From the IMG/VR virus record IMGVR_UViG_3300045020_000038, positions 1 through 54,276 of that record: a stretch of 54,276 bases of DNA; one strand, written 5' to 3'. Source of the DNA: a virus (Duplodnaviria > Caudoviricetes). Positions within the stretch are counted from its first letter, which is position 1. Every line of letters begins with the position of its first letter. The notes below the pieces were generated by a model that saw only the letters and a list, made by a program, of their open reading frames with translations, was not told the origin of the DNA and made no database searches. Position numbers and translations under genes: made by a program. Positions 2,305 to 51,565 of the stretch are shown in pieces.

Positions 2305-2435
2305 GTAGTGATCTCCGTGTTCTGATCATTAAGATTCTGAATCATTACCAACAGATTAGTGATGTCAGCCTGGTAGGCTGCTAGTTGTCCCTGGTTCTGT
2401 TGAAGGAGTTGTTGTAGTACTTCCTGTATTGTCAT
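2280..2435 (-). CDS. 51-aa Gln-rich coiled-coil protein inside the split polymerase locus
   Basis: TAATG overlap with the upstream polymerase gene; MTIQEVLQQLLQQNQGQLAAYQADITNL...ANPG. Confidence 0.7.
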   Translation of the reverse strand: MTIQEVLQQLLQQNQGQLAAYQADITNLLVMIQNLNDQNTEITTWLAANPG

Positions 2436-3565
2436 TAGTCGTATCTACTCACAAAAAGGTCATTTGCTTCTGAATCCAGATTCTGGAGATTGGGTCCACT
2501 TGAACTGAGTCGTCCGGTGGTTACCGTTACCTGATTGAACTGACCATGAAGATATTCAGGTTCCCAGTTCTGTTCTTCGGCCTTAAGGATAAGGCCATTG
2601 TAGGTCTTCGAGAGCAATGTCTCTAGCCGTACCTGCTTCTTGATAAGATCCAATATATGTCTAGTAGTTTTATTGGCTTTCAGCTTTAGCAAAGTATCAG
2701 CATTCGTGGCGAAGAATCCCTGCTTCTTAAGGGCACTACCACGCAAGGGTTCAATCAACCGGGGTAGTTCCACTAACCGTTCTATATTTTTATACTTCGG
2801 TTCACCAGCCCTTAGTCCCGTCTTGAAGACGCCCACCAGTTCTTTATCCGGGATTGTAATCGTGCCACCATACAGAAAGGCAGATAACTGATCGCCACTA
2901 CCAAAGTTAATAGGCACATCAGGATAAATCGTAGATAGTTCACCGGTGATTTGTTGTATTTGTTCTTTAATTTCTCCAGCACGGGTTCTTGCTAACTCCT
3001 CATTAAACTTTATTCCATTCCATTCCATCTCAGCCAGAATCATCAGGTCCATACACATCAGATTGCACAGACGCCTCTGTGATTCGGACATGAGACCCAT
3101 CTGATGTTCGTACAACCGTAAGGTCATAACAGCGTCCGTCGTAGCGTAGGAGCCCAGTATATCCCACGGAATGTCTTCCGTCTGGACTCCACGTTTCCAA
3201 TATTCCGCTACCTTGTCCTCTTTGTGTCCAAGACCATGTTTGACCAAGGACTCTTCGAGACTTGGATATTTCCATTGTTGGTTACTCAGTAAGAATTCAG
3301 CTACTTGGCAACACCAGATCCGGTTTTCTTCTAGGTTGATTCCGAGTTTTCGGCAGACGTTCGCATCGTATTTAATATTGAAGCCAACGATTGTTCCAGC
3401 TTTATCAACTCTTCGTTGCAGGAGTTCAATTGATTCCGGAGAGATCCTTTCTGCACCAGAATCTTGTTCATCTGCGAAAGAATAGCAGACAGGTTTGTGT
3501 CTTCGGTCACTCCAACTCCCCTTATTCCAAGTGTTTGACTCTGTATCGATAGCCAGAACATTCAT
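2435..3565 (-). CDS. polA: family A DNA polymerase, N-terminal part (3'-5' exonuclease plus thumb region)
   Basis: ExoI DTE, ExoII GFNIKYD, ExoIII YATTDA; ends just after TTGRLSSSGPNLQN. Confidence 0.92.
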   Translation of the reverse strand: MNVLAIDTESNTWNKGSWSDRRHKPVCYSFADEQDSGAERISPESIELLQRRVDKAGTIVGFNIKYDANVCRKLGINLEENRIWCCQVAEFLLSNQQWKYPSLEESLVKHGLGHKEDKVAEYWKRGVQTEDIPWDILGSYATTDAVMTLRLYEHQMGLMSESQRRLCNLMCMDLMILAEMEWNGIKFNEELARTRAGEIKEQIQQITGELSTIYPDVPINFGSGDQLSAFLYGGTITIPDKELVGVFKTGLRAGEPKYKNIERLVELPRLIEPLRGSALKKQGFFATNADTLLKLKANKTTRHILDLIKKQVRLETLLSKTYNGLILKAEEQNWEPEYLHGQFNQVTVTTGRLSSSGPNLQNLDSEANDLFVSRYD

Positions 3566-3744: not shown

Positions 3745-4957
3745 GATATCTTCCTATCTCTGGTTCAATCAACGTTTCCCAACGATCATGTCTCAACTTC
3801 GGATCAGTATCTTCATCTCCCCACAACTTATTCTTACTCAAATGGAGGAAACGAAGATTATCATAACCGGCTTCATTCACTTTTCCAACACCAAGAATCC
3901 AGTCCGCCTCAGCCTGTTTGCTTGTCTTAGCGTTAGCCACGTTTGCCATGGACAACCAGCGAACTCCCTCACCAGACCCATCTGCCTGGCAGACCCCGAT
4001 GACCGGACAATATGTCTTGGCGAGTTCACGAGCCCAAATGTATATGGATCCGAGTCGCAGATCCTCTCGATCATTGTCAAATCCTTTGATCTTATCGATC
4101 TGATCGAAAACAACGAGGCTCGGCTGGACTTTCTTACAGATGGCCTCAACTTGTTTAAAGTGAATTGACGCACTGTCCTTGAGCTTAATGTTGTCCTTAG
4201 TCGCCTGCAGATATTTCTCACGATTCTCTTCCAGATTACTCAGAAGTTGGGTGTTATCCATTCCAAGAGCAGACTGGTAACACCGAAGCATTACTTCCGT
4301 TCCGACCTGTTCATTGTTAAACCAGAGTACAGGATTCGTAGCTTGCGCAGCCATGAATGTAACTTCCGAAGCCAGGAACGTGGTTTTCCCTGTTTCCGGC
4401 CTTGCAAATACAAACCCAAAATTGCCCTGTCTAAGCGACCCAAGACGTTTATTGAGAGATTCAAGACGCCATCGCAAGCCTTCCACAGCGCGACTTGTAT
4501 TAACGATCTCCACAAGATCACTGCTAACGAAATCATTATCCTCGTCTTCACATAGTTGCTCCGGTGACTTGAGTTGTTCTACCAGTTGTTGATAGTCTTC
4601 TTCCTTACCCCGACCCTCCGCTAGTTCATAAGCAGATACAGATAGTTCCCGTAGAAGTCGGCTACGCTTGAACGTCTCAATAAGTTTTTCAGTCGAGAAA
4701 TCATTTGCATCTACCTGTTTGAGAGCGTCGAAGACGCCTGAGTAGAAATCTACCTTACTACGATTACTGGAGAAATACAGATTAGATAAGTCGTCAACGG
4801 TTAGATTACCGTCGGATTCTGTGGTAGTAAAGTACCCGTCGATGGTACGTACTACAGGATGTAGTTCCTTGGAGAAATCGGATACATCCAGGGTATCTCT
4901 GATCTTATTATAATTCTCTTTACTCAGAAGATATTTTACAATACTTAACTCTATCAG
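3734..4957 (-). CDS. DnaB-like (SF4) replicative helicase with a non-canonical start (CTG at 4957 or the next codon ATA)
   Basis: Walker A ARPETGKT, VVFDQ, GVCQA, KQAEAD; the frame is open 148 codons upstream of the GTG at 4513 with no ATG/GTG/TTG; GGAGGT RBS directly before. Confidence 0.9.
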   Translation of the reverse strand: MIELSIVKYLLSKENYNKIRDTLDVSDFSKELHPVVRTIDGYFTTTESDGNLTVDDLSNLYFSSNRSKVDFYSGVFDALKQVDANDFSTEKLIETFKRSRLLRELSVSAYELAEGRGKEEDYQQLVEQLKSPEQLCEDEDNDFVSSDLVEIVNTSRAVEGLRWRLESLNKRLGSLRQGNFGFVFARPETGKTTFLASEVTFMAAQATNPVLWFNNEQVGTEVMLRCYQSALGMDNTQLLSNLEENREKYLQATKDNIKLKDSASIHFKQVEAICKKVQPSLVVFDQIDKIKGFDNDREDLRLGSIYIWARELAKTYCPVIGVCQADGSGEGVRWLSMANVANAKTSKQAEADWILGVGKVNEAGYDNLRFLHLSKNKLWGDEDTDPKLRHDRWETLIEPEIGRYRDL

Positions 4958-5559
4958 ATATACCTCCCTCCAACTAGTTTCTTATTTTTGATAAAATCTT
5001 CAATAGCTTCGTGAACTTCTTTATTATTAAAAGTTGCTCGTTGCTGTCGAGGTGTTTCTTGCTTGGCAAATTCTCCAAAACCCTCTCCGGCTAATCTATC
5101 ATACTCTTTACAAGCATCCTGGTAATTATAAAAAGGTCCTCGTGAAATAACATTATTATCAATCTTCATATGTACATGCCAGGTATCACTACGAAAATCT
5201 TTTACTACTCCTTTAATACCTGTGAAAGAATTAAATTTCCTTTTCTTGTTTTGAGCATTCTGTTGTGCTGTCGCCAACCTAAGATTGTCCCAGCGATTGT
5301 TGCGTGCATTACCATCTTTATGATCTACATATTCAGGAGGCCATTCTCCTGTCATATAGAAGAAAGCTAATCGATGATAAGAATATGAATACCCTTCAAT
5401 TGTTATACTTCTATAGCCATATTCACTTTCTGTACCAGCAGGTCGTTCTATGTTACGACCTTGTTTTGGAACTAACCACCAGAACAAACCTGTTTCTGGT
5501 TCATACAACAATAGTTCTTTGAGTTCTTCTTGAGTTATCTTTTGTTCTTTATCTGTCAT
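4954..5559 (-). CDS. HNH homing endonuclease with an AP2-like C-terminal domain
   Basis: ITQEELKELLLYEPETG, YHRLAF, VDHKDGNARNNRWDNLR, TGIKGV, GFGEFA. Confidence 0.92.
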   Translation of the reverse strand: MTDKEQKITQEELKELLLYEPETGLFWWLVPKQGRNIERPAGTESEYGYRSITIEGYSYSYHRLAFFYMTGEWPPEYVDHKDGNARNNRWDNLRLATAQQNAQNKKRKFNSFTGIKGVVKDFRSDTWHVHMKIDNNVISRGPFYNYQDACKEYDRLAGEGFGEFAKQETPRQQRATFNNKEVHEAIEDFIKNKKLVGGRYI

Positions 5560-5604
5560 TAAGTATTCACTTATAAATAACCTGAACGGAAGAGAAAACA
5601 AATC

Positions 5605-6907: not shown

Positions 6908-6985
6908 TCATTTCCTCAACATTATGATAACATAGATAATCAGTGTTCCCCAGAACAATATATCAATTAAATCATAAGAGCTCAT
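6908..6985 (-). CDS. 25-aa putative single-TM peptide
   Basis: MSSYDLIDILFWGTLIIYVIIMLRK; ATGA overlap with the protease stop. Confidence 0.55.
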   Translation of the reverse strand: MSSYDLIDILFWGTLIIYVIIMLRK

Positions 6986-7674
6986 TTGAGATCTGCCAGT
7001 TCATAAGCCGGGGTTAGGTAACCAATCATAAACGGAATACCATTAATAACTTTCACCTGATCCATTTCCGCAAGACCCATTACACAACTGAGGGAATCAT
7101 CCACTGCCGGACCACCACTGTTCCCCGGCACTAACGAGGTATCATACTGGATAAAGTGATCAAATGGAACTGTCAGAATATCCTCTTGGGCACGATCCGG
7201 GTAAGCGACGTGACCAATGGAAACAGTCTTGGATAGACCGAGGGGTCCTCCCATGAGATCAAGTACCTCTCCATAATATGGTTTAAATGAGCATACAGCC
7301 AGCCCAACGGGCCAGTTGACCGTAGCATCACTGGTGGTAAGGGTCATGATGTCCGGACCCGTTGTATCGTCTGCATCACCGAGCTTCTGAATGTGGAAAG
7401 GGTGTTGCTTACCATCCCCAAAATCTACATTCAATACTGCTGTTGGATCCAATCCTTCGGCACAGTGTGCTGCCGTTACTACCTCATGTGTTCCCTTTAG
7501 TACCCAACCACTACAGTAACTGGAGTCCGTAGTCACTGCTACTACATTCTCCAGTTTCTGTTCCAGAGTCGGTGGAGGAACATAGTGACTAGTCTCATAA
7601 TAGATATGACCAAACAGAGACACCATAGCAATGAATGCCAAGGCACCAAGGGCGCTACCGATCTTCGTAAACAT
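6982..7674 (-). CDS. trypsin-like (S1) serine protease with an N-terminal membrane anchor
   Basis: VVTAAHC, PDIMTL, PGNSGGP catalytic triad motifs; hydrophobic N-terminal helix. Confidence 0.9.
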   Translation of the reverse strand: MFTKIGSALGALAFIAMVSLFGHIYYETSHYVPPPTLEQKLENVVAVTTDSSYCSGWVLKGTHEVVTAAHCAEGLDPTAVLNVDFGDGKQHPFHIQKLGDADDTTGPDIMTLTTSDATVNWPVGLAVCSFKPYYGEVLDLMGGPLGLSKTVSIGHVAYPDRAQEDILTVPFDHFIQYDTSLVPGNSGGPAVDDSLSCVMGLAEMDQVKVINGIPFMIGYLTPAYELADLK

Positions 7675-7865
7675 TATTTATCACCTTTAAGAATTTCTTC
7701 TAAAACCACATCATCATAAATTGTGTTGATCAACTTATTTGCTGCACGAATAGCGGGTTTCATCAACTGCTCTGCAGTATATACGTTACCCGGATTACTA
7801 AGAGTACTTCCAATAATACCTGCTGCATAACAAAGCAAACGCTCACGCTCATTACTTAATTTCAT
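7674..7865 (-). CDS. hypothetical protein
   Basis: TAATG overlaps on both sides. Confidence 0.75.
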   Translation of the reverse strand: MKLSNERERLLCYAAGIIGSTLSNPGNVYTAEQLMKPAIRAANKLINTIYDDVVLEEILKGDK

Positions 7866-8650
7866 TACAGTTTCAAAGCCTTTTTAATTTGATCAAGTGC
7901 ATGGTCCTTCGGATCATCTAATGTAAATATTGCTCGGCTATGTACCCCCAACATACCCAGTTGACGTGCCATCTTCTGTGCTTCCGGAAACTTGTCATGG
8001 TCCAGCCACACAAAGATATTCTTGTATAGCTGGCGGATACGACTTAGCTTTTTGAGCGGCATCGCTGCACTAAAGCACGGGATTCCATCAATGCCTGCGT
8101 GGCTAACGCAGATTCCGCTGATGCAGTCTTCAACAATGCAAGCCGTGTTTGTTGACGTGCGACTATAATAAGCTGCAATAACGTCCGCTGGCGTTCCTCC
8201 AGTAAAGAAGCGATTGTCATGGGTGGTACCGGCTCGGAAATTACGGGCTTGCCACAACACCAGGTCCTTATCTTCTCCATAAAATCGGAAGATGAGTTGT
8301 TCACGAGATTTACTCCAGCCAACATGGTGACGGATCAGATCGGGAACCGCCAGACCGTACTTACCTACCCATTCCAGCACTACCTCAGGATATCCTCCAG
8401 ACTCAGTGTCATCAGGACAGGATCGTAGTAGACTATTGCTCCCATCACTCTCGGGTCGTCGTTCTCCTGATTGCGACTGTCGAGATAGTTCTGATAGGCT
8501 CTTGACAAATCCGGATTCTCCCGGTTCATATGCTCCACATCCAAAACAGAATGCTGAACCTCCCTCATACCGGGCCAGATTGTCCTTTGATCCGCATACC
8601 GGACAGGGCTCATGCTTGAGAAATCGTGCGCTTTGTGCATAGCCATACAT
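7865..8650 (-). CDS. DNA primase (Zn ribbon plus TOPRIM), separate from the helicase
   Basis: HEPCPVCGSKDN...FCFGC zinc ribbon; IVED, WLDHD, DPKD TOPRIM motifs. Confidence 0.88.
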   Translation of the reverse strand: MYGYAQSARFLKHEPCPVCGSKDNLARYEGGSAFCFGCGAYEPGESGFVKSLSELSRQSQSGERRPESDGSNSLLRSCPDDTESGGYPEVVLEWVGKYGLAVPDLIRHHVGWSKSREQLIFRFYGEDKDLVLWQARNFRAGTTHDNRFFTGGTPADVIAAYYSRTSTNTACIVEDCISGICVSHAGIDGIPCFSAAMPLKKLSRIRQLYKNIFVWLDHDKFPEAQKMARQLGMLGVHSRAIFTLDDPKDHALDQIKKALKL

Positions 8651-8652
8651 AG

Positions 8653-9273
8653 TTACTCCATAACATCCAAGAGATTCTGCACCAACTTTCTTAGTTCCTC
8701 TTTCTCATATCGGAGATATGCATTAGGAGTGGGAATAGTCTCTCCCAGATCTTTCTTGCTAAACAACGTTGAATGTTTCTTTACCGTGGGAAACTCAAAG
8801 ACCATGAATGCCGTCAGTTTCTTTGGGTCATTCTGGACATTATGAATCTCTGTATGTTTTTGAAAGTGTGACTCTCCTAGTTTTAACTCCGTCTTTGATA
8901 CTATCTTTAATCCAATCTTCCTGAGAAACTCCAACTTGATTTTCTTTTCTTTATTTTCTGGATGCAGGGCTGACGTCAGATGATAGGCATTATAATCCTG
9001 CTTATCATAATCCACTTTATAAACCGTATTGACAATCCATCCATGTAATACCAGGAGCTGGCTATCATACAGATGATTATGGATCTGGACATTTGTGGTA
9101 TCCAGATTATCTCTCGGTTCAACTATATACAATCTGATTGTTTGATGTGGTGTGAAATCAAAACACACGTAATTCAAACCAGGAAAATGAAAGTTCTTGA
9201 TGGAATCTTTGACCATCTTATCCAGATTGTGTTCTAGTTGGAGTGAAATCCAATGCTTCCAGAATGAGTTCAT
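8653..9273 (-). CDS. cupin-fold protein
   Basis: IRLYI...IHNHLYDSQLLVLHGWIVN...EIHNV cupin metal motifs. Confidence 0.6.
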   Translation of the reverse strand: MNSFWKHWISLQLEHNLDKMVKDSIKNFHFPGLNYVCFDFTPHQTIRLYIVEPRDNLDTTNVQIHNHLYDSQLLVLHGWIVNTVYKVDYDKQDYNAYHLTSALHPENKEKKIKLEFLRKIGLKIVSKTELKLGESHFQKHTEIHNVQNDPKKLTAFMVFEFPTVKKHSTLFSKKDLGETIPTPNAYLRYEKEELRKLVQNLLDVME

Positions 9274-9278
9274 TTCCT

Positions 9279-9566
9279 TTACTTCCTCTTCTTACTAAAG
9301 TGTTGTTTGGGTACGATGATGTCTACTACCATTACATCCGGTACATCCATCATGTACTGCTTCACTTCTGCCAGATATCCCGTGGGAAGAGTACCCCGTT
9401 TAATATTTTGAACAGGACCGGATCGCATCTTCTCCATTACCTGACTGGTTTTCTGTGTCAACTCCTTGACTCCCGGGCAACTACAGTTGGGATTGTCACA
9501 GGTGGTTTTCTTCATCCACTCATCCCCGTTGAACCGTTGCTTACACGCCTTACATGTGACAATCAT
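9279..9566 (-). CDS. Zn-finger-like hypothetical protein
   Basis: ATG 9566 behind GGGAG; CKAC...CDNPNCSC. Confidence 0.65.
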   Translation of the reverse strand: MIVTCKACKQRFNGDEWMKKTTCDNPNCSCPGVKELTQKTSQVMEKMRSGPVQNIKRGTLPTGYLAEVKQYMMDVPDVMVVDIIVPKQHFSKKRK

Positions 9567-9567
9567 A

Positions 9568-9801
9568 CTACTCGCTCCCATTGTCGGCTCCCCTCGGGTC
9601 AAAGCTGATGCCTTCCATATCCTCGGCATTGTAATCCTCCTCATCTGCACCGAAACCCTCGGTGCTTTCGGTGATATCGGGTATCTCTTCCGCGACGTAA
9701 GAAAAGCACCGATCACATAGGTCAATAAAAGTCCCGCTAGAAGAATATTTGCGAGTGCTCTCACGGTTATTTAACCTCACATTGCAACTTAGGCAACGAA
9801 T
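9568..9801 (-). CDS. Zn-finger protein with an acidic tail, ATT start
   Basis: (I)RCLSC...ESTRKY...LCDRCF then a D/E-rich tail; GAGGA RBS before ATT; the GTG at 9780 would lose the first CxxC. Confidence 0.75.
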   Translation of the reverse strand: MRCLSCNVRLNNRESTRKYSSSGTFIDLCDRCFSYVAEEIPDITESTEGFGADEEDYNAEDMEGISFDPRGADNGSE

Positions 9802-9821
9802 TTTGGGTTCCTCTCTTTTTA

Positions 9822-10271
9822 TTATCGTGGACGACGTGGCGGAGCAACTGGACGATTAAAGAGTTCGTCAAGATTCACGTTACGGGGTTCCCATCTACCA
9901 GGATCAAACGCATCGCCGGGAGCAGCAACCTTAGCTTTCTCAACCCGTTTAGCTTTAACTGCTGGTTCGAGCTTCACTCCATCAGGTAGGACTTCCAGAA
10001 TTGTTTCTTCTTCTTTCAGTCGATCCGGGAAATTACGAGCTCGATCGTTAAACACCAGGATAGATCCGGTTACAGGAGACTTCAGATTCTCCAGCCCATC
10101 ATTAGTTTCAATGACGAGCATGGGTCCTCCCCTGACTACCTTGTTCAGATCCGCCTGCATCACGTGGAAACACTCACCCAACTTCTCTTCAATAAACCGT
10201 TGGGTAAATCCAATACGGAGTGTTCCTCGTGGACTGGTTTCTGTCCAGAGATTTCCGTTAACTTCTTTCAT
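9822..10271 (-). CDS. glycine cleavage system H-protein-like protein lacking the lipoyl lysine
   Basis: W...GTLRIGFT...LGE...VIETNDG...SPVTGSILVFN...P aligns with GcvH W...GTYTVGIT...LGD...VAESVKA...[11 protein letters not shown]...P. Confidence 0.8.
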   Translation of the reverse strand: MKEVNGNLWTETSPRGTLRIGFTQRFIEEKLGECFHVMQADLNKVVRGGPMLVIETNDGLENLKSPVTGSILVFNDRARNFPDRLKEEETILEVLPDGVKLEPAVKAKRVEKAKVAAPGDAFDPGRWEPRNVNLDELFNRPVAPPRRPR

Positions 10272-10453
10272 ACAACCTCTGTTTGAGTTTTAATCAATTC
10301 ATCTCTAAGTTTCATAAGCTCTAGCATACCTACCGTATTGACGTGGTATTTAGCCTGTGCATCAGTCAATAATCGAAGAAGATCCTGATGATCTTGACTC
10401 GTATTTATTTCAATTTTATATGGACGAAATGCCTTGGTTACATGAATTTTCAC
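10268..10453 (-). CDS. hypothetical protein
   Basis: GTG start, AGGAG RBS. Confidence 0.7.
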   Translation of the reverse strand: MKIHVTKAFRPYKIEINTSQDHQDLLRLLTDAQAKYHVNTVGMLELMKLRDELIKTQTEVV

Positions 10454-10611
10454 TGTAAATCTCCTAGATATCGCAACATTTCTACCGCTGTTTCATGAAA
10501 CTGAAATCGAGTAGTAATTCCAATGTCCCGAAGATCTGACCAAAAGAAAGGAAAGATTCTTTGTTGTAGATAAAACCATCCATCCCGCTTTTGTTTTATT
10601 CTGAATTTCAT
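10450..10611 (-). CDS. 53-aa hypothetical protein
   Basis: MKFRIKQKRDGWFYLQQRIFPFFW...; ATGA and GTGA overlaps with neighbours. Confidence 0.7.
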   Translation of the reverse strand: MKFRIKQKRDGWFYLQQRIFPFFWSDLRDIGITTRFQFHETAVEMLRYLGDLQ

Positions 10612-10799
10612 TTCAAATCCTTCAAAAAGATTTCAATTTTCTCCAGTGTATCTGCATCGTCTCTAGAAAGTTTGGACAACATAGACTTTGGATGTATAAT
10701 CTCCCATCGAGCTCTATGTATGATTACCAAGAGATCGTCCAAGTCTTGCTTGGTCTCTAGAATAATAGTCATCGGTGCAAATTGTTTTTGGATCTTCAT
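10608..10799 (-). CDS. hypothetical protein
   Basis: ATGA overlap with the ATP-grasp stop. Confidence 0.7.
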   Translation of the reverse strand: MKIQKQFAPMTIILETKQDLDDLLVIIHRARWEIIHPKSMLSKLSRDDADTLEKIEIFLKDLK

Positions 10800-11662
10800 T
10801 TTAGATGCCTAACAAACGCTTGTGCGTAGTTTCCCACGGTACTGCCCTCAAGTCCTGGCGCGGTGTTGACTTCCAGACAGTAACACTCGTTCCGTTTTTC
10901 ATTCCAAATGATGTCAACTGCACCAAAGTCGAGGTTGAGTTGAGCCACCACTCGTTGAGCCATTTGTCGCATCCCTTCAGGCTCGGTGATGTCTTCACGA
11001 CAATAGACCCATCCGGTTTGATGATTACGTACCTGAAAGTCTGCCTTAAAATCTTCTGGCAGATCCTTTCGTTTTCGCTTTTCCTGAACATCGATTACTT
11101 CTCCAAAGGCGACGTGGATCCGGAACTCTTTTTGCTTCTTGATGTACTGCACATACAACGGTGCCCGGACCAGTTTATCTTCGGTATCAGCAAGCACAAT
11201 ACCGGCACCAGAATGACCAGAAAGTACGGTCCGACACACCACAGTAATCTTTTCAGCCAACCAGCTAGTTGCAACAGCTCGGTCGGTAGTATAAACGGGT
11301 ATACGAATTCCATCCACATCCTTCAAAGCGTTAAAAGTACTCAGCTTATTACTGGCGACAGCCACATTAGCTGGATTGTTGATAGTCTTCTTCCCTTCAC
11401 CCACCTCTAGATTGGAGTTGCCCCAATTGATATAGACAGTCCATGGATGTTCCTTGAAGGTGGGGTTCGGGCGATCAGTGAACAGTCGGCGGATTTTGTA
11501 GCCGCAGAGTTCGCTCATTGATAGAGCCAGATTCCTTGCTGACTGAGAGCCGATCTTGTACGGCAGCAGCACTAGAGGCCGCCTTGGTGCGGGCTGCTTC
11601 AATTGCTTTCTTGGTGTTGGTGTACGATGCAAGGTACTTGTCACGGTAGTCCTCCCGTTCAA
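10796..11662 (-). CDS. RimK-like ATP-grasp ligase (true start probably about 11570-11602)
   Basis: INWG, ASNKL, GHSGAGI, YVQYI, EFRIHV, VRNH, DFGAVDII, LEVNTAPG. Confidence 0.92.
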   Translation of the reverse strand: MNGRTTVTSTLHRTPTPRKQLKQPAPRRPLVLLPYKIGSQSARNLALSMSELCGYKIRRLFTDRPNPTFKEHPWTVYINWGNSNLEVGEGKKTINNPANVAVASNKLSTFNALKDVDGIRIPVYTTDRAVATSWLAEKITVVCRTVLSGHSGAGIVLADTEDKLVRAPLYVQYIKKQKEFRIHVAFGEVIDVQEKRKRKDLPEDFKADFQVRNHQTGWVYCREDITEPEGMRQMAQRVVAQLNLDFGAVDIIWNEKRNECYCLEVNTAPGLEGSTVGNYAQAFVRHLK

Positions 11663-13082
11663 TCTTCTTGGCGATACAGTCAGGGCACAACATTGTCAAT
11701 ACATTAACTGGCTTTTCTTTCTTCGGCATGATGACATGCTTCTCAACAAGAGTTGTAAATACTTTCTCCCAAGCCTCTACCTTACGTTGGCATTCCATAC
11801 AGCATCCATGATTCATGGCATAGTCCCACAACATAACCGGGACTTCCTTGGAATGTACCTGTGTAAATGTAGCCTTCTTGGTATCCTTTACGTGGATGGT
11901 CCATCCTCCATTAACTGTATGGGTGTGATGTTGTACCGTCCCAATACACATTGTTTCAAACCACTGAGGTAATTCATTACCCGATACATCATGTGGAAGA
12001 AATCCCTTGACATCCAGACGTTCCTTCCCGGGGGTCATAACCAACCCATTGAAAGAGAACCGTCCATTGGCTGTCTTCGATGCCGCATGAATCTTGATCA
12101 GCATTGTCTCATTACGAGGGAATGCCTCATTGTACGCATGGATAGATGCAGTCCGAGCTTCCGCCTGATCCTCATCACTAGAAGGCGAGGTGTCTTTTGC
12201 GAGCGTTAGCGCGCAGGGCTTCGAAGGCGTCGGGGTCGAGTGGGCTTGTTTTGCGGGAGCCATCTCCGTCCCTTTCGGAAAAAGCTCACAGTCCTTCCGT
12301 GCCTGTGCCCTCATACCCGTACTATATCGTTGCCAAGCCAGAAGCTCGGCATCATCGTCGAACTCCCCCGATAGGGTCACATCCTCCTTGTTAAAGGAAC
12401 CATCAGCGTTGAATACAAAAATCTCGCCTGGTTCAATCGGGATAGAACGCTTGATCTCAATATGAGCGCGCTGTGCCGGGAAAGCAGCAATCCACGCCTC
12501 CGAAGTGAGGAACATGAAGTTATCACTTTCCAGAATACAGAGAGGTCGTTCATCATTCCGGGTAGCATACAACTTCTCAGTATTGGTATCATACCAGATC
12601 AATGCAAATGCCCCATTAATCTTGGAGATTACTCTCTTGTAATCACCATGACCTTCTAGTTCACTTTCTTCTGCCAACGCGTGGGCGATAGCGTGGCTAT
12701 CCACCTTGGTACTCACGTCGGTCAGGTTCTTCTGATCCTTCAACGTACCATTGTGAACCAGAATAATATTCTTTTCCACGAAGGGATGGGCGTTGTCTGT
12801 GTTGACTTCACCACGGGTCGCCGCACGGTTGTGCCCAACAATAAACTTACCCCGATTGGTAACACTAGACTTGAATTCTCCCCACTCCGTCGATCGGAAT
12901 AGATTGTAGGGATGTGAACCATGCTTAATAGCTCGAACATCACCATTACGGAAACGGGTAAATACCCCCGTCGAATCCTTCCCTCGGATGGAATCAATCA
13001 GTAACATGGTTTCGAATACCTCCACGTCACCATAGTTGAATCCTTGGGGCTTACGAGCGATCATTCCCAAAAGTCCGCACAT
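11475..13082 (-). CDS. class II (Ntn) glutamine amidotransferase with a long C-terminal extension
   Basis: MCG N-terminus, RGKDSTG, GHNRAAT, NAHPF, HNGT, VDS, GAFAL, RPL. Confidence 0.92.
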   Translation of the reverse strand: MCGLLGMIARKPQGFNYGDVEVFETMLLIDSIRGKDSTGVFTRFRNGDVRAIKHGSHPYNLFRSTEWGEFKSSVTNRGKFIVGHNRAATRGEVNTDNAHPFVEKNIILVHNGTLKDQKNLTDVSTKVDSHAIAHALAEESELEGHGDYKRVISKINGAFALIWYDTNTEKLYATRNDERPLCILESDNFMFLTSEAWIAAFPAQRAHIEIKRSIPIEPGEIFVFNADGSFNKEDVTLSGEFDDDAELLAWQRYSTGMRAQARKDCELFPKGTEMAPAKQAHSTPTPSKPCALTLAKDTSPSSDEDQAEARTASIHAYNEAFPRNETMLIKIHAASKTANGRFSFNGLVMTPGKERLDVKGFLPHDVSGNELPQWFETMCIGTVQHHTHTVNGGWTIHVKDTKKATFTQVHSKEVPVMLWDYAMNHGCCMECQRKVEAWEKVFTTLVEKHVIMPKKEKPVNVLTMLCPDCIAKKIEREDYRDKYLASYTNTKKAIEAARTKAASSAAAVQDRLSVSKESGSINERTLRLQNPPTVH

Positions 13083-13085
13083 CAG

Positions 13086-13982
13086 TTATGCTCCGATAAT
13101 TTTAAAATAAGGCGACTCTTTCGAGACACTTTTGATCAAGGTTGTTAACCTGTTACGGTCGATGAACGACCTCTTGACTACACCACTGGAACGACGGATA
13201 TCCTCAAATGATTCAAACTTCAATCGAATATCATCGTTACCAAAGATATCGTGTAGCAATTCCCTCCAGTTAGTAAAGGCATTACACTCAATTGCCAATC
13301 GACAAATGGCGGGAGTCCCCACCTTCAGTACATAGTCCACCAACTTATTGATAATCCGAATCCAGATCACCACCTTATTGTGATTGAAGGTTCCATGCAT
13401 GTGACGAAATTCAATGGTACCGAATTCCCCCAGCGGAATGATATTCAATCCCGCATACTTGGACCAGGTTTCTACAACGGCACCCAGATTCTCCCGACCC
13501 ATGCCAGTAATCAGCATGGTATCCATCAACGGTACACAGTAGATATTCTTGATTCGTCCACGACCCGTGTACTTATAGAACAACGGCTCAAGGATGGTAT
13601 ACAACATCAAGATGTCGGTTACCTGTGTTCCGGTCATCCCCTGACAATTCACATGTACGTGGATGGACGTACGTGGAGAGAAGCAGCATGACTCAGCCAG
13701 ACTGTTACCCAGTAAATCCTGCAACGCATTGGGGGCATACTTGGCTGCGATCGGATGCGTCACCCATTCCACACCAGCATTACGCAAACTACCATCTGCC
13801 TTATTCATCCACACCGGTTGTGGATTGTGTTTATATCCAGCATTCTCCACTTCCACTTCAATACCAATGGCCCGATCACAATCGATAACCTCTGGACCAG
13901 GCTGCATCGTGGCATAGAAGGGACCAGCATCCAGTATCGTCGGAGGACGTACCCCGAAGATATCTCCTACAGTTTTAGCCAT
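13086..13982 (-). CDS. putative amidoligase (Amidoligase_2 type)
   Basis: GIEVEVE, DGSLR, EWVT, SIHVHVN, KYAGLN, GTIEFR. Confidence 0.9.
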   Translation of the reverse strand: MAKTVGDIFGVRPPTILDAGPFYATMQPGPEVIDCDRAIGIEVEVENAGYKHNPQPVWMNKADGSLRNAGVEWVTHPIAAKYAPNALQDLLGNSLAESCCFSPRTSIHVHVNCQGMTGTQVTDILMLYTILEPLFYKYTGRGRIKNIYCVPLMDTMLITGMGRENLGAVVETWSKYAGLNIIPLGEFGTIEFRHMHGTFNHNKVVIWIRIINKLVDYVLKVGTPAICRLAIECNAFTNWRELLHDIFGNDDIRLKFESFEDIRRSSGVVKRSFIDRNRLTTLIKSVSKESPYFKIIGA

Positions 13983-14601
13983 GAATATCCTCCAGCAAGA
14001 ATTGTACAGTCGGACGATAATCTTCTTCCATCAACACCGTGAGTTTTCCCTTCGAATCCACTCGTGCAATTGGATGAACCCAATGCCATAGCACGTAATC
14101 CGGATTCTCGAACAACGTTTGAGTCAAGGTGAAGTTATCCCGTAGTGCAACACCACGAAATCCCCCTACCTTCAACATCTTCAATGCCTCCTTGACAGAA
14201 TAGGTTTCGTGCTCGAAGGCGTCACGGATTTCTGCGTGATTCCATCGGGACCGATTACCCACCACATTCCGGGTAACATTAAACAGAACACTGTTATCCG
14301 GGCAGATTCCCCTACGATACTGCCGTTGGGGGCGACGGTAGAATACCATCGCATCCGTTTCATGCTGGAATACCCCGACCGGAGGATACTTGAATCGGAG
14401 TTGATGCCCATCCGATCCAAAGTTAATCTGGAATTTACCCAGAGTATCACTGGATAGATGCATGGTGGCAATCTTCGATCCACCTGTCTCTTCTACCAGA
14501 TCTACCTTGACCAGTTCTTCCTCTCGATCTGCGATATCCAGCCAGACAAACGTTCCTTGCCAGCGTCGGCTAAAGTCCTGGATCACTTCCGAGTTAGTCA
14601 C
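13975..14601 (-). CDS. hypothetical protein within the ligase cluster
   Basis: GTG start with AGGAG RBS; overlaps both neighbours. Confidence 0.8.
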   Translation of the reverse strand: MTNSEVIQDFSRRWQGTFVWLDIADREEELVKVDLVEETGGSKIATMHLSSDTLGKFQINFGSDGHQLRFKYPPVGVFQHETDAMVFYRRPQRQYRRGICPDNSVLFNVTRNVVGNRSRWNHAEIRDAFEHETYSVKEALKMLKVGGFRGVALRDNFTLTQTLFENPDYVLWHWVHPIARVDSKGKLTVLMEEDYRPTVQFLLEDIHG

Positions 14602-15377
14602 AGTCCAATCTCCTGCTTCAGTTGAGCGAGCAACTTCAGATCGCTGTTGTTGATACAGGCTTGGATCATTGCACCCTGTTCATCCGTGAATGTCCGACCA
14701 GATGCCACGAATTCCAGAGCTTTTTCGGTCTGATCCCAGACCCACTGAATCCGTTCATCCGATTCGATCCACCGATTGGACGCGGTGCGATATTCCACCC
14801 CGTAACTCTTCTTACGGAATGCTCCAGCCTTACCATATAACTCACGACGACCAGCATCGTTGTCAAACTCCAGCATCAGACAGCCAACAAAGGCGTCCAT
14901 CGCCTTGACAACAGCCAGCATGTCCATCTCGTCATGGTCAAACTGAATGTGGATATGGCCACCACACGAGCGGAGATTCTTGTTCGCTGCTTGTGGAGGG
15001 GGGTTTTGATTACCATTATTCCACGCATTGTAATCCGGCTCACAGCCGAAAGTCTTAGCAGCACGAGTTTGCAACTGATCATCATCGAACACGGCGCTGG
15101 GCTTTATCACCATTTCCAATCCCAACTCGGCAGCACGAGCCTTGATCCAATCCTTATTCAGATTGATATTCTTGATGAAGTCCGCCGCACTCCTGCAAGG
15201 AGGGGTGTTGAATTCAATCGTAACATTGTCTTCCTGCACAGCGTTACCTTCATCGTCAATCGGACGAGGTTGTTCTTTCGAACCCCCTACCAGACCAACA
15301 CTGCTGATGAACTTGTTGTTCTTCGGATCGAAGAGAAACGTTTCAGGATCACAGCCAAGGCGTCGAATTTGTTGCAT
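14598..15377 (-). CDS. phiEco32-like COOH.NH2 ligase type 2
   Basis: LGCDPE, QEDNVTIEFN, FGCEPDYNAW, GGHIHI, RRELYGKAG, YGVEYRT. Confidence 0.92.
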   Translation of the reverse strand: MQQIRRLGCDPETFLFDPKNNKFISSVGLVGGSKEQPRPIDDEGNAVQEDNVTIEFNTPPCRSAADFIKNINLNKDWIKARAAELGLEMVIKPSAVFDDDQLQTRAAKTFGCEPDYNAWNNGNQNPPPQAANKNLRSCGGHIHIQFDHDEMDMLAVVKAMDAFVGCLMLEFDNDAGRRELYGKAGAFRKKSYGVEYRTASNRWIESDERIQWVWDQTEKALEFVASGRTFTDEQGAMIQACINNSDLKLLAQLKQEIGL

Positions 15378-15384
15378 GTTAACC

Positions 15385-16128
15385 TCACTTATTCAGGATA
15401 TATTGATCAACTTTACGCAGGCAATACTGGACAAACGGACTTTCTTCCGGGTTACCCACAAATTCCGGATGACCTTGAATCGCTAGACCCTTGATATCCG
15501 GGAACCACACAATCTCCGGTTCAGGAGTATCCGTCTTGTGCATCTCGGCATCTTCAGCATCTCCCTCCGTGATGTATGTGTTACTCCGCTTAGGCCATGC
15601 CTGAGCCAACAATACGTGACTCACATCAAACGGATACATCATCTGGTGGTGTACCGACGTGGTATTGATCACGATATCTTCATCCAGACACTTCATCCCG
15701 TGTGTACCACCGTGATTGTTCACGTGCTGGATAAGACGCCCACCAGCCAAAGCACACAGAAGTTGAGCACCCCGGCAAACACCGATAAGAGCAATCCCCC
15801 TCTCCATAGCCGCGAAACATGCTTCAGCTTCCACTTGATCCCGTCGTGATAGACTTGTACGAGCATCAGTATACTTACTAGGCAGCTCCCCATATAGAGA
15901 AGGAGAAATATCCTCCCCACCCCAAATAACGAGAGCATCAATGTCGACTCCATTTGCAATCTCCGTGGGAGTTACCAGTCGACCCTTCTGGTAACGTTGA
16001 TCAAAGGGATCCAGGGTACCCGTACCCATTCCTACATGACCGAGAGTCAACGCCTTCGATTCTTGTCCCAACGTTAGTACTTCGCTTTCAACTGCCTTAA
16101 CGATATCTGTCAATTTACTTACTCCCAT
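15385..16128 (-). CDS. class I glutamine amidotransferase / peptidase C26 (gamma-glutamyl hydrolase-like)
   Basis: GGEDISP, GVCRGAQLL, SVHHQ, QGHPEF. Confidence 0.9.
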   Translation of the reverse strand: MGVSKLTDIVKAVESEVLTLGQESKALTLGHVGMGTGTLDPFDQRYQKGRLVTPTEIANGVDIDALVIWGGEDISPSLYGELPSKYTDARTSLSRRDQVEAEACFAAMERGIALIGVCRGAQLLCALAGGRLIQHVNNHGGTHGMKCLDEDIVINTTSVHHQMMYPFDVSHVLLAQAWPKRSNTYITEGDAEDAEMHKTDTPEPEIVWFPDIKGLAIQGHPEFVGNPEESPFVQYCLRKVDQYILNK

Positions 16129-16474
16129 TTGTCAGAACATAACATTCAAGGGTATTACCACTTCCCGGATTCTTCCACTTGTGGACAAACAAACAGTCCG
16201 GTTGTTCACGCACAAGAGTGCGCAATTCCTTATTATCAAATATCCGATTACCACTACGTTTAACAAAGTTAAACACAATGGGTCGTTTTCCACACTCATC
16301 GCGAGCTTTTGTGAGCTCGTTAATCCAGGCTTCTTTTAGCGTGGGAAATCCGTATCGATTTGCCCACGCGGCGGACTCCAAAATCGGATATGAATCAAAA
16401 CTTCCTGCCGTCATCATTCCACAGCAAAAAGAAATATCATCTACGGACATGTCCGCTACAAATTTCTTGCTCAT
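16115..16474 (-). CDS. CCG-motif hypothetical protein (paralog A)
   Basis: FCCG...RPIVFNFV...WKNPGSGNTLECYV. Confidence 0.8.
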   Translation of the reverse strand: MSKKFVADMSVDDISFCCGMMTAGSFDSYPILESAAWANRYGFPTLKEAWINELTKARDECGKRPIVFNFVKRSGNRIFDNKELRTLVREQPDCLFVHKWKNPGSGNTLECYVLTNGSK

Positions 16475-16475
16475 T

Positions 16476-16784
16476 TCAATCCTCAGTAGCTGTCATATTG
16501 TTCTTGATGACATATGAATCAATCCGATTATACGTACCTGGATTGGTCCAGTGACCCAGATATACTACGTCCGGATGATTCTTCACTGCTGCAACAATTT
16601 CCTCCGGACTGGATCTCACGAAATTGAAGATCAGCGGACGACCATTTGCATCATCGATCAACTCTTCAACCAGTTCAGCCGCCGAATCGGAATTGAATTC
16701 GGTATCGTCATCTCCCGTGAAATACCCCGCTTCATTGAAGCCACAGCAAAACGGTAGCCTGGCTGTATCCGCTTGAAAACTCAC
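16476..16784 (-). CDS. CCG-motif hypothetical protein (paralog B)
   Basis: GTG 16784 behind GGAGGT; FCCG...RPLIFNFV...WTNPGTYNRIDSYV. Confidence 0.8.
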   Translation of the reverse strand: MSFQADTARLPFCCGFNEAGYFTGDDDTEFNSDSAAELVEELIDDANGRPLIFNFVRSSPEEIVAAVKNHPDVVYLGHWTNPGTYNRIDSYVIKNNMTATED

Positions 16785-17236
16785 AGTTCCACCTCCGATT
16801 CCGCTGTCGCTTTGGCGACGGGTTTGAGAACCAATTCGCCTGCGTCGTTGTACTGCTTGGTGATAATGGTGGGCTGCGCGGTCTCGAAGATATCTCCACA
16901 TTTGAATACCCCATAGAGACGAGTCGGCTTCAACGCAGCTTGCTCTTCTGCATACGTCTTGGCTTTACCCTCTGACGTGAATACAACAATATCATTCTTG
17001 GTTTTGGAATCCGGAAAGAAACCATAACCAGAATCTTCTGCGGGAGAATCTTCCACAATCACTTGAGGACGTCGCTCAGCGCGACGATTGTCCGGCTGTG
17101 CCCGGGCTGGTTGAGCTTCCTGCAACCCAAACCCCTGATCTCGTCCGATACCATTCACGAGTACGACCTTGTTAGGATCAGCGGCTACATCCAATGGAAC
17201 GACCAGCCACATACGCCCTACAGTTTTACCAGCCAT
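16781..17236 (-). CDS. hypothetical protein
   Basis: GGAG RBS, 151 aa, packed operon. Confidence 0.8.
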   Translation of the reverse strand: MAGKTVGRMWLVVPLDVAADPNKVVLVNGIGRDQGFGLQEAQPARAQPDNRRAERRPQVIVEDSPAEDSGYGFFPDSKTKNDIVVFTSEGKAKTYAEEQAALKPTRLYGVFKCGDIFETAQPTIITKQYNDAGELVLKPVAKATAESEVEL

Positions 17237-17242
17237 TTTCTA

Positions 17243-17479
17243 TCACTCCAAAATAACATCAGGTAGTTCACGATCTCTCAAGAAACTAACGCCTTCTTCT
17301 TCCAGCACAGTCTGCGACAGAAAGACAAAAGGTTTCTTGAGCTCTCCCAAAAACTGCTCTACTGCACCCAGAATCTCATATGGTTCATGATTAACCGTGA
17401 GAACCGTTACGTATTTATTCCCACTGATAAACGTGAATTGCATCCATCGATCCCGGTAATAATTCCGGAAATCAATCAC
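17243..17479 (-). CDS. hypothetical protein
   Basis: GTGA overlap, GAGG RBS. Confidence 0.75.
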   Translation of the reverse strand: MIDFRNYYRDRWMQFTFISGNKYVTVLTVNHEPYEILGAVEQFLGELKKPFVFLSQTVLEEEGVSFLRDRELPDVILE

Positions 17480-18021
17480 ATTTGTTCCTCAATAATGGAA
17501 TCCAGCAAGTCGTCCGACAGACATGCATGAATCACAAACAGATCCTCCGCCCATGCGGCTTCACGGTTTGGTCCTTGCGGATCGAGCCATAAAACCGAAA
17601 AGGGAGTCCAGACGGTATCGTTCGCCATCAGATACCGGTTTACATCCAGAATAACTCCCCACTGGATATGGGTCTTATACCTCCATTCACTGCACCACTT
17701 ACGTGCAACGACTGTTCCCTTTCCATACCCGTGAATCTCTGCCTGTTTGAGATATTCATTCATCTCATTGGCAGTGGGTCGTTGGGGTGCGTGATACTTG
17801 ATTGAGTGGACTTTGTCCTTAAAAATAAAATCGTACTTATCCCGGGTGCTGGCCAATCGACAGGGACTTTCCAGACTTTTGGTATCCACTGTCATCGCCT
17901 GCTTTCCGGCACGAATGACTGAGATATCCACAACACTGGGTTTCTCAAAATACAACTTACCCGGAATACCTAAGTCATCTTGCATCTCTTCCGGCACGGG
18001 GCCTTTATATCGGCGGCCCAT
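17476..18021 (-). CDS. hypothetical protein
   Basis: AAGGAG RBS, 181 aa. Confidence 0.8.
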   Translation of the reverse strand: MGRRYKGPVPEEMQDDLGIPGKLYFEKPSVVDISVIRAGKQAMTVDTKSLESPCRLASTRDKYDFIFKDKVHSIKYHAPQRPTANEMNEYLKQAEIHGYGKGTVVARKWCSEWRYKTHIQWGVILDVNRYLMANDTVWTPFSVLWLDPQGPNREAAWAEDLFVIHACLSDDLLDSIIEEQM

Positions 18022-35309: not shown

Positions 35310-35510
35310 ATGACCGAACTACACGAACGCGTTGCCGCCCTGGAGCAAGCACGCAAAGATGACCGGGAAACAATCACCAAGATCTTAGCTCATGTAAAAT
35401 CTATCGATGAGAATATGAATCGGTATAAAGGTTTTATTGGAGCAGTCTGGTTTGCTATTTCATGTATTGGTGTTTTCTTCAGTGCATTTAAATTCTTTCA
35501 CAAAGGTTAA
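35310..35510 (+). CDS. small coiled-coil plus single-TM protein (possible holin/antiholin)
   Basis: ERVAALE coiled coil, C-terminal hydrophobic helix. Confidence 0.6.
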   Translation: MTELHERVAALEQARKDDRETITKILAHVKSIDENMNRYKGFIGAVWFAISCIGVFFSAFKFFHKG

Positions 35511-35512
35511 TT

Positions 35513-35947
35513 ATGGGTATTCTTGATCTTGTCGCGGGACCTATCTTGGACATTGTAGACAAGATTATCCCAACACCTATGACTGCAGAGCAGAAAGTTC
35601 AAGCTCAATTGGCAGTAGCACAACTTGCACAAAATGAAGAATTTAAACAAATTGATGCACAGTTAGCTACGACTCAACAACAAACAGATACTGATAAGGC
35701 TGAAGCATCTAGTAATAGTTTATTTGTTGCTGGATGGCGGCCCTTTATTGGCTGGATTTGTGGTACCGGTCTTGGTTGGAACTATATTGGAATTTCTGTG
35801 CTTTCCTTCTTGACTACGGTAGTGGGACATCCGGTTGTGATGCAAAAAGCTGATCTCAGTGAAATGATGCCACTACTTATTGGTATGCTCGGTTTGGGTG
35901 GTATGCGTACATATGAAAAAATCAATGGAGTAAATAGTGGCCAATAG
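35513..35947 (+). CDS. holin of the 3TM / GTA-holin type
   Basis: FVAGWRPFIGWICG and MLGLGGMRTYEK motifs. Confidence 0.85.
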   Translation: MGILDLVAGPILDIVDKIIPTPMTAEQKVQAQLAVAQLAQNEEFKQIDAQLATTQQQTDTDKAEASSNSLFVAGWRPFIGWICGTGLGWNYIGISVLSFLTTVVGHPVVMQKADLSEMMPLLIGMLGLGGMRTYEKINGVNSGQ

Positions 35948-51279: not shown

Positions 51280-51565
51280 CTTCCTCGTAGTACATATCTA
51301 ACCCCAGCGCAGAACCAATGGTATATTCCAGGGTAGCCCCCGCACTCTCTTGCCATCCAATAAGCATATACATCGCTTCACAATGAATCAGTGCCTCGAT
51401 ATCCTTGATCATACATTCTTTCCAATCCGCTTTTGGATCTGGATTAATGTCGACCGGATTGACAACCTCCCACCCATCATATCGTAGATCATCTGCCACA
51501 GAATTGAAGGCATCAAAGTTCATACCTTCGTAACCAGTCATCGGTCCAGCAATATAGATGCTCAT
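51212..51565 (-). CDS. DUF4406 / nucleoside deoxyribosyltransferase-like protein
   Basis: IYIAGPMTG, VVNP, GWQESAGATLE. Confidence 0.85.
   Translation of the reverse strand: MSIYIAGPMTGYEGMNFDAFNSVADDLRYDGWEVVNPVDINPDPKADWKECMIKDIEALIHCEAMYMLIGWQESAGATLEYTIGSALGLDMYYEEDDYKNDNNGTNTAGNDGEAESA

Follow-up and report, generated by a model that had tools for sequence, protein, structure and literature searches.

What a phage might do with a protein that has the fold of the glycine cleavage H protein (GcvH), but an acidic residue where GcvH carries its lipoylated lysine, is the question raised by one gene of the phage genome IMGVR_UViG_3300045020_000038 (IMG/VR). The window, i.e. the whole stretch of DNA analyzed, comprises the 54,276 bp of this record, which has direct terminal repeats and an estimated completeness of 100%. 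The gene encodes a GcvH-like protein of 149 amino acids on the minus strand (9822-10271) and is packed tightly, on the same strand, with the genes of an amide-ligase operon. The protein belongs to a family restricted to viruses, in which an aspartate or glutamate is conserved at the lipoyl-lysine site. The favored reading, which is put forward tentatively, is that it serves the ligase operon as a lineage-specific accessory, be it a substrate, a docking element or a regulator. An accessory of one lineage is the most that is proposed, because the role of an obligate carrier is ruled out by the distribution of the operon described below.

The GcvH fold and its acidic hairpin tip

The likeness of the protein to GcvH far exceeds chance. 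The Pfam model GCV_H (PF01597) aligns residues 7-83 with profile positions 7-83 of 122 with no net gap (E 0.0046), in agreement with an earlier sequence-only reading of the locus, which had described a nearly gap-free alignment to GcvH. The score of the window protein is 17.3 bits and thus under the curated cut-off of 22.2 bits; some relatives, unlike the window protein, score above this cut-off, and 37 of the 42 aligned family members match the model at E ≤ 0.01 (best 7.9e-8). Only three NCBIfam models are matched, all of the GcvH type and all far under their cut-offs (17.6 and 21.4 bits for TIGR00527 and PRK01202 vs about 116 and 117). A profile of the 42-sequence family gave nine matches to PDB sequences at E ≤ 1, comprising six GcvH proteins (best E 0.022), two hnRNP M and one E2 lipoyl domain. 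The AlphaFold2 (AF2) model, built on the 42-row alignment, has high confidence values (pLDDT) for residues 1-100 and low ones for the tail (Table 1). When compared with PDB by Foldseek, the model gave 22 matches at E ≤ 0.001, and those listed at ranks 1-21 comprise nothing but GcvH, GcvH-L and H-protein complexes (E 5.8e-6 to 1.8e-4, TM-score by target 0.56-0.69); the identity to real H proteins is 15-23%. The E2 lipoyl domains and the biotinyl domains of biotin carboxyl carrier protein (BCCP) reached E 0.08 or worse. In the ESM Atlas, GCV_H clusters were obtained by features and by structure alike. Since Pfam, NCBIfam, the PDB profile, AF2 with Foldseek and the ESM Atlas all concur, the barrel-sandwich hybrid of GcvH is confirmed as the predicted fold of residues 1-100. 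The predicted barrel includes the N-terminal strands specific to H proteins and is alignable without gaps over about 77 residues, whereas the C-terminal helix region of GcvH is missing and a disordered basic tail follows instead.

The printed hidden Markov model (HMM) alignment sets 'iEtnDg' of the family over 'AESVKA' of Escherichia coli GcvH and thereby places Asp58 (codon GAT at 10098-10100) at the position of the lipoyl-lysine, as had been proposed from the sequence alone. Assignment by DSSP on the AF2 model yields strands at residues 50-56 and 59-65, with N57-D58 as a two-residue turn. The conservation of this tip was followed in an alignment of 182 rows, consisting of the window protein and 181 fetched sequences (none dropped, one of them an 83-aa fragment). 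Position 58 is occupied by D (141), E (24), T (6), S (3), N (2), G (2), C (1), M (1) and I (1), with one gap; an acid is thus present in 165 of 182 rows and lysine in none, so that the acid, on which the earlier idea of a carrier had leaned, is well conserved. Other fixed positions are E55 (180), T56 (164), N57 (161), P66 (181), G69 (178), A78 (179) and P82 (182), and about 30 positions are conserved at ≥ 90%, including a new motif that has no counterpart in GcvH. W9, the glutamate at -3, the SPxxG turn and P82 are retained from GcvH, whereas the Cys34/His36 and AxNFPD motifs are additions of the phage family. C34 is found in 165/182 and H36 in 167/182 sequences, in place of hydrophobic residues of GcvH; 138/182 retain the pair jointly with the acid at position 58. 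A coupling between loss of Cys34/His36 and loss of the acid was looked for in the 182 sequences and was not seen. Cys34/His36 may form a metal site or a catalytic dyad. Judged from its conservation, the hairpin tip is under purifying selection.

Of 59 candidates from a word-seeded search, 41 were relatives at E ≤ 0.01. When 1.84 billion representatives of clusters at 50% identity were searched exhaustively with HMMER, 162 matched at E ≤ 1e-3, and 121 of these reached E ≤ 1e-10. All are viral. A pattern scan of 185,579 prokaryote species genomes found no member, and the family is therefore regarded as a phage invention rather than a carried-over metabolic gene. PHROGs contained no family matching the protein and BFVD no match at E ≤ 0.001. 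Pattern scans for distant members were negative in IMG/VR (two alignments) and gave a single contig of 1,576 nt, here termed L009, in metagenomes. The tail of the window protein (49 aa; 8 Pro, 7 Arg, 4 Lys, 7 Ala; net charge +4) is basic and rich in proline, as noted before. Behind the domain, each member carries a variable tail of low complexity, 11-169 aa long (median 81.5), in which Ala (13.3%), Arg (10.6%), Pro (9.3%) and Gln are abundant; the median net charge is +1, and in 25 of 42 near relatives the tail ends in R[RK]xR.

Full-text searches of the literature turned up no account of a phage GcvH-like protein of this type, in line with the earlier statement that no system of this kind was known. 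Already known are the GcvH fold itself and non-canonical H-like proteins (GcvH-L; the NCBIfam model 'not_gcvH'). The combination of a virus-only family, a conserved acid in place of the lipoyl-lysine, a Cys/His motif of its own and a disordered tether, set in a phage amidoligase operon, appears to be undescribed.

Because no family member has a lysine at the lipoyl site, the source annotations 'glycine cleavage system H lipoate-binding protein' are misleading for this family. Neither GCV_T nor BPL_LplA_LipB was found in the complete 54,276-bp genome by a search that did not extend to the P protein; as the phage is without GCV_T and without LplA/LipB, the protein is not taken for a metabolic GcvH. 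Host genes could in principle supply the T protein and lipoate attachment. It is also most improbable that a gcvH captured from a host is decaying here as a functionless remnant. The scores of the window protein under the Pfam and NCBIfam cut-offs would fit such decay, as would the short, unannotated copy of an Alcaligenes phage (see below), which has lost the motifs. However, the 162 clusters have intact frames, the highly conserved positions include the new motif, and the fold is predicted with confidence; the conservation of the family contradicts a remnant.

The GcvH-like scaffold could instead be directed at the host, as the sequence-only reading had also considered in the form of a non-lipoylatable decoy. 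The protein would then be an H-protein mimic that binds LplA, LipB or LipA, or GcvP/T/L and E1/E3, with its acidic tip occupying the lipoyl-lysine pocket, and the outcome would be a rewired glycine, one-carbon or 2-oxoacid metabolism; if true, no earlier phage inhibitor would be known to act against the lipoyl/H-protein machinery. The scaffold is specific to GcvH, with Foldseek E values of about 1e-5 for H proteins vs the far weaker E2 lipoyl and BCCP matches, and E55 (position -3) and G69 (position +11) are nearly invariant; both positions reportedly determine recognition by lipoyltransferases. The lack of a lipoate ligase and a T protein in the phage genome and the absence of the family from the scanned prokaryote genomes are also in keeping with a decoy. 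Nevertheless, such a role is considered unlikely. The identity to real H proteins is low, the lipoamide-cleft residues are not kept in an alignment to pea and E. coli sequences, and the disordered tail stands in place of the C-terminal third of GcvH. Moreover, the invariant T56-N57 and C34/H36 are not obviously needed by a decoy, and a block of new lipoylation would presumably be slow relative to lytic infection.

The amide-ligase operon and the GcvH-like gene

The gene order on the minus strand is Peptidase_C26, COOH-NH2 ligase, a 208-aa protein, Amidoligase_2, class-II glutamine amidotransferase (GATase), RimK-like ATP-grasp ligase, three small open reading frames (ORFs) and the GcvH-like gene (Table 1). 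From 16128 to 9279 the genes are tightly packed, with starts and stops that overlap or nearly abut, and the start of the GcvH-like gene overlaps the stop of the preceding small ORF (ATGA). Promoter- and terminator-like sites in 7500-17500 are not commoner than in shuffled sequence. The ATP-grasp ORF ends at 10796, which is 525 nt upstream of the GcvH-like gene on the same strand and agrees with the distance of about 0.5 kb given earlier. The earlier assignment of this gene to the RimK type is likewise supported by Pfam, NCBIfam and a PDB profile, the latter giving 4/4 matches to RimK-type protein-glutamate ligases (E 1.8e-8 to 1.1e-6). The three small ORFs vary among relatives, and family searches with them found none. 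The 208-aa protein yielded a single-sequence AF2 model with a pLDDT of 36.5, and an Atlas search with it gave no usable match. A complex prediction for the ATP-grasp ligase (residues 28-288, 65-row alignment) and the GcvH-like domain (residues 1-105) gave scores of 0.11 and 0.01 against a mark of 0.32 and bears neither way.

Over 188 nt (11475-11662, minus strand), the ATP-grasp ORF and the 3' end of the class-II GATase gene share the same DNA in different frames. The overlap is also present in relatives and amounts to 77 nt in the Alcaligenes phage. Gene callers put the ATP-grasp start at M49, yet a conserved LLPYKxGSxSA N-terminus precedes M49. The overlap is either a real gene overlap or the result of a mis-set start or stop.

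The phiEco32/LUZ24-type amidoligase module was reportedly analyzed by Iyer et al. in 2009. It consists, as here, of COOH-NH2_lig, a protein of ~200 aa, Amidoligase_2, class-II GATase and ATP-grasp, and was found upstream of the primase in phiEco32, LUZ24-like and Paundecimvirus phages; the order is equal in the window, LUZ24, K4, Lyrsu02 and the Alcaligenes phage. The module is listed as well in the gene table of UFV-P2 (PMC3890496). It differs from the window in that an AIG2/GGCT cyclotransferase or other small genes follow the ATP-grasp gene, with no GcvH-like gene. As for a releasing enzyme of the AIG2/GGCT or C26 peptidase type, the window has the Peptidase_C26 gene (E 5.8e-16), and a search of the window for GGACT (gamma-glutamyl cyclotransferase) found none. 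The ATP-grasp gene occurs in 312 of 50,697 phage records, LUZ24-like Pseudomonas phages included, and 3,946 proteins match it at E ≤ 1e-20, far above the size of the GcvH-like family. Since the module is widespread without the GcvH-like gene, the protein cannot be its obligate carrier. The module is common in lytic phages, and its role is treated as unknown in passages of PMC10580990 and PMC3890496; proposals cited in a passage by the authors of the OM43-phage study (PMC10580990) are cell-wall modification or secondary metabolism. No functional study of a phage COOH-NH2 ligase or (from 2019) of a phage amidoligase was found among the papers listed by literature searches.

Eight IMG/VR loci encode relatives of the GcvH-like protein with identities of 43-95%. 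In all six that have enough flank, Amidoligase_2, class-II GATase and ATP-grasp lie upstream of the GcvH-like gene in the same order; the remaining two end at a contig edge. The C26 and COOH-NH2 ligase genes are also present in five of these six loci, and the sixth begins at the amidoligase. Contig L009, the sole locus obtained for a distant 'ECWHILP' subfamily, carries ATP-grasp fragments, a small ORF, a GcvH-like gene with the hairpin tip IENNDG and two Zn-ribbon ORFs. The ATP-grasp gene of L009 (3-461, plus strand) is split over two frames (3-173 and 267-461), owing to a frameshift or an assembly error. When the ORFs of six cultured module phages, called in all six frames, were searched with the domain HMM, the sole match (E 1.2e-14) was an unannotated 94-aa ORF of Alcaligenes phage vB_Af_QDWS535 (L011 7776-8060, plus strand, corresponding to OK172329.1 about 35401-35685, minus strand). 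The GenBank annotation leaves an 843-nt 'gap' directly behind ATP-grasp, and this ORF sits there, with an overlap of 8 nt between its start and the ATP-grasp stop; by tblastn against the 50,697 phage records it matched only itself. As a rough proxy only, 17 GcvH-like matches share the size of their longest contig with an ATP-grasp match.

The co-occurrence with the ligase cluster, for which a check had been suggested from the sequence alone, is therefore real in the IMG/VR loci, L009 and the Alcaligenes phage, but narrow, and several observations weigh against a functional tie between the protein and the ligases. All loci with context belong to one collinear phage lineage, so that co-occurrence is not independent evidence and adjacency may reflect shared ancestry only. 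No GcvH-like ORF was found within 7 kb in five of the six cultured module phages (Vibrio KIT05 and 275E43-1; Pseudomonas Lyrsu02, K4 and LUZ24), and the stretch after ATP-grasp varies, with a gamma-glutamyl cyclotransferase in Lyrsu02 and LUZ24 (LUZ24 gp22, UPF0131 domain) and other small genes in K4. Three members of the family (the window protein, P0100 and P0131) had no tblastn match in the 50,697 phage records. The Alcaligenes homologue has the tip AEMSYG, with Tyr at the lipoyl column, and is without the Cys/His pair and the tail; in the family at large, residue 58 is non-acidic in 16/182 members (about 9%), plus one fragment. The gene stands at the border of the ligase module and the replication genes, and longer forms fused to an enzyme were searched for and not found, which counts as weak evidence. 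Finally, the acidic Zn-ribbon protein encoded next to it looks, by analogy, like a better substrate for a RimK-type enzyme, because such enzymes extend acidic C-termini.

Table 1. Coordinates of the GcvH-like gene, its parts and its neighbors in the window
Feature	Position	Strand	Evidence and remarks
GcvH-like protein, 149 aa	9822..10271	(-)	ORF with ATG start; stop codon 9822-9824; Pfam GCV_H; AF2 + Foldseek GcvH fold
GcvH-fold domain, residues 1-100	9972..10271	(-)	pLDDT of ten-residue blocks 87-94; ~100 columns alignable to H proteins
Hairpin-tip motif E55-T56-N57-D58-G59	10095..10109	(-)	HMM alignment to E. coli GcvH; turn between strands 50-56 and 59-65
C34-F35-H36, family-specific Cys/His pair	10164..10172	(-)	Conservation in 182-sequence alignment
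Disordered basic Pro/Ala/Arg-rich tail, residues 101-149, ending RRPR	9825..9971	(-)	pLDDT of ten-residue blocks 50-63
Peptidase_C26 / class-I GATase-like gamma-glutamyl hydrolase	15385..16128	(-)	PF07722 E 5.8e-16; phrog_7218; weak NCBIfam gamma-glutamyl amide hydrolase matches
phiEco32-type COOH-NH2 ligase	14598..15377	(-)	PF14395 E 4.6e-9; phrog_3815 E 5.6e-68
Conserved module protein, 208 aa, no fold assigned	13975..14601	(-)	phrog_11055; syntenic in relatives and Alcaligenes phage
Amidoligase_2 (carboxylate-amine ligase)	13086..13982	(-)	PF12224 E 7.2e-7; phrog_7469 E 7e-39
Class-II (Ntn) glutamine amidotransferase with C-terminal extension	11475..13082	(-)	GATase_6 (PF13522) E 3.9e-15; phrog_4736
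RimK-like ATP-grasp ligase	10796..11662	(-)	Pfam RimK (PF08443) E 8.6e-6; phrog_2599 E 1e-73; NCBIfam rimK_fam, MptN; start uncertain
Three small ORFs (61, 53, 63 aa)	10268..10799	(-)	Between ATP-grasp and GcvH-like gene; 4-nt start/stop overlap each
Small Zn-ribbon protein with acidic tail, 77 aa	9568..9801	(-)	Probable ATT start behind strong Shine-Dalgarno; directly downstream of GcvH-like gene
Second Zn-ribbon protein, 95 aa	9279..9566	(-)	ATG at 9564-9566; ORF list had extended frame to 9764

Zn-ribbon neighbors and carrier-like systems

The gene for the acidic Zn-ribbon protein was found by tblastn in L001-L009 (9/9 loci). In the seven IMG/VR and metagenome loci from which full ORFs were extracted, it starts next to where the GcvH-like frame stops, and a spacer of 2 nt separates the two genes of the Alcaligenes phage. 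In relatives the Zn-ribbon ORF begins with ATG (MRCLSCN). The window has ATT at this place, 7-8 nt past the strong Shine-Dalgarno sequence AAGAGAGGAA, and L003 also has Ile there; the sequence suggests a non-canonical ATT start for the 77-aa protein. Its frame was masked in the ORF list by an over-extended 'orf161', the conserved part of which begins at residues 59-69. Searches for a family or a solved relative of the Zn-ribbon proteins found none.

It may be asked whether these neighbors, rather than the ligases, are the partners. The GcvH-like protein would then work with the downstream Zn-ribbon proteins and the primase, for example as an adaptor in early infection or replication, and its basic tail could bind the acidic tail of the neighbor or nucleic acid. 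The tightest conserved adjacency is indeed that with the acidic Zn-ribbon gene, while 0 to 3 variable small ORFs intervene between ATP-grasp and the GcvH-like gene; the GcvH-like tail is basic (less so in the family median than in the window) and that of the neighbor strongly acidic. However, the tail differs widely in length and sequence between members and the Alcaligenes homologue has none, the acidic tip and the Cys/His pair are left unexplained, and the Zn-ribbon proteins matched nothing of assigned family or structure. A role apart from the ligases is thus judged doubtful, and quite unlikely to be the right one.

The accessory role in the ligase operon is preferred because of the conserved acidic tip, the carrier-like tether, and the presence in the operon of a RimK-family enzyme and two acyl-phosphate-forming ligases. 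The protein would be a non-lipoylatable, GcvH-derived 'swinging-arm' module, composed of a hybrid-barrel domain of ~100 residues and a flexible Ala/Pro/Arg-rich tether, with a functional site rebuilt around the acidic tip E55-T-N-D/E58 and the Cys34/His36 pair. Its partners would be two glutamine-synthetase-type carboxylate-amine ligases, the RimK-like ATP-grasp enzyme, the class-II amidotransferase and the C26 gamma-glutamyl hydrolase. The hairpin tip would enter a ligase active site, where its carboxylate might be the acceptor and, once converted to an acyl phosphate, be amidated or extended; alternatively, the tip might be an active-site-directed docking or regulatory element. Contact with the ligases, covalent modification and the identity of a cargo are points that we infer. 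ATP-grasp enzymes are known to act on hairpin-tip groups of hybrid-barrel carriers, as biotin carboxylase does on BCCP, and the RimK-family enzyme LysX loads a carboxylate of its carrier LysW. Lipoyl and biotinyl carriers have flexible linkers, which the family tails resemble in composition. For work on the ligase operon, the protein offers a concrete handle, being conserved, foldable and non-enzymatic and having a rebuilt hairpin at its reactive site.

A bolder version of the ligase-dependent role, close to the repurposed carrier of the sequence-only reading, is a new carrier chemistry. Asp/Glu58 would be turned into an acyl phosphate and loaded with an amine by the glutamine-synthetase-type ligases or the RimK-like ATP-grasp enzyme, and the cargo would be amidated by the class-II amidotransferase, extended, and freed by the C26 hydrolase, i.e. 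LysW-like amide chemistry on a hybrid barrel that would build a peptide-like product or a modified protein. Of that proposal the fold, the conserved acid and the RimK-like neighbor have stood; the loci are not independent, the acid is not universal, Tyr takes its place in the Alcaligenes homologue, and the module is wider than the gene. Such chemistry is held improbable. If the acidic tip were the acceptor, carrier-protein chemistry would extend beyond lysine-linked cofactors.

Three known systems resemble the GcvH-like protein in part. The top Foldseek match is PDB 5a35 (E 5.8e-6, TM-score by target 0.69), the GcvH-L of a SirTM/macrodomain operon, a short H-like protein outside glycine cleavage that is the target of an operon-encoded modifying enzyme. 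GcvH-L keeps its lipoyl-lysine and is lipoylated before ADP-ribosylation, whereas no sirtuin, macrodomain or LplA is present among the window proteins scanned and the LplA/LipB search of the genome was negative. The LysW/ArgW proteins, with LysX/ArgX, share with the phage protein the encoding of a small protein near a RimK-family ATP-grasp enzyme. LysX joins an amine through an amide bond to a carboxylate of its carrier, which is the chemistry proposed here. In LysW the acceptor is a Glu at the C-terminus of a Zn-ribbon protein; the phage protein differs in its GcvH-like fold, its internal Asp and its C-terminus RRPR. The neighboring acidic-tailed Zn-ribbon protein looks closer to LysW, but its last residues are not conserved. 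The BCCP and E2 lipoyl domains share the E-T-x-X spacing to the SP..G turn, as in the lipoyl motif 'ETDKA', and a flexible Ala/Pro-rich tether. The partner of BCCP, biotin carboxylase, is itself an ATP-grasp enzyme. The phage protein lacks the turn Lys, a cofactor ligase and a carboxylase or dehydrogenase partner, and its Foldseek matches to these domains are poor, as given above.

Other observations on the genome

A passage of Lee et al. (PMC8989533) notes that, in other contigs, genes for thymidine hypermodification have amidoligase and amidotransferase genes nearby. A role of the module in DNA hypermodification was set aside here, the genome being without ThyA-like, ThyX and PurZ. Neither a PurZ-like adenylosuccinate synthetase nor ThyA or ThyX was found in the genome, despite a 183-aa protein (51565-52116, minus strand) with a dATP/dGTP diphosphohydrolase N-terminal domain (PF18909, E 2e-22). 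At 6982-7674 (minus strand) lies the gene of a trypsin-like serine protease that has a hydrophobic anchor at its N-terminus; it is syntenic with the block in 6/8 IMG/VR loci (L002-L006 and L008), with no match reported in L007. An HNH endonuclease gene (4954-5601, minus strand) lies between the helicase and upstream genes. The family-A DNA polymerase is apparently split in two ORFs (1418-2146 and 2435-3565, minus strand), as is annotated for LUZ24.

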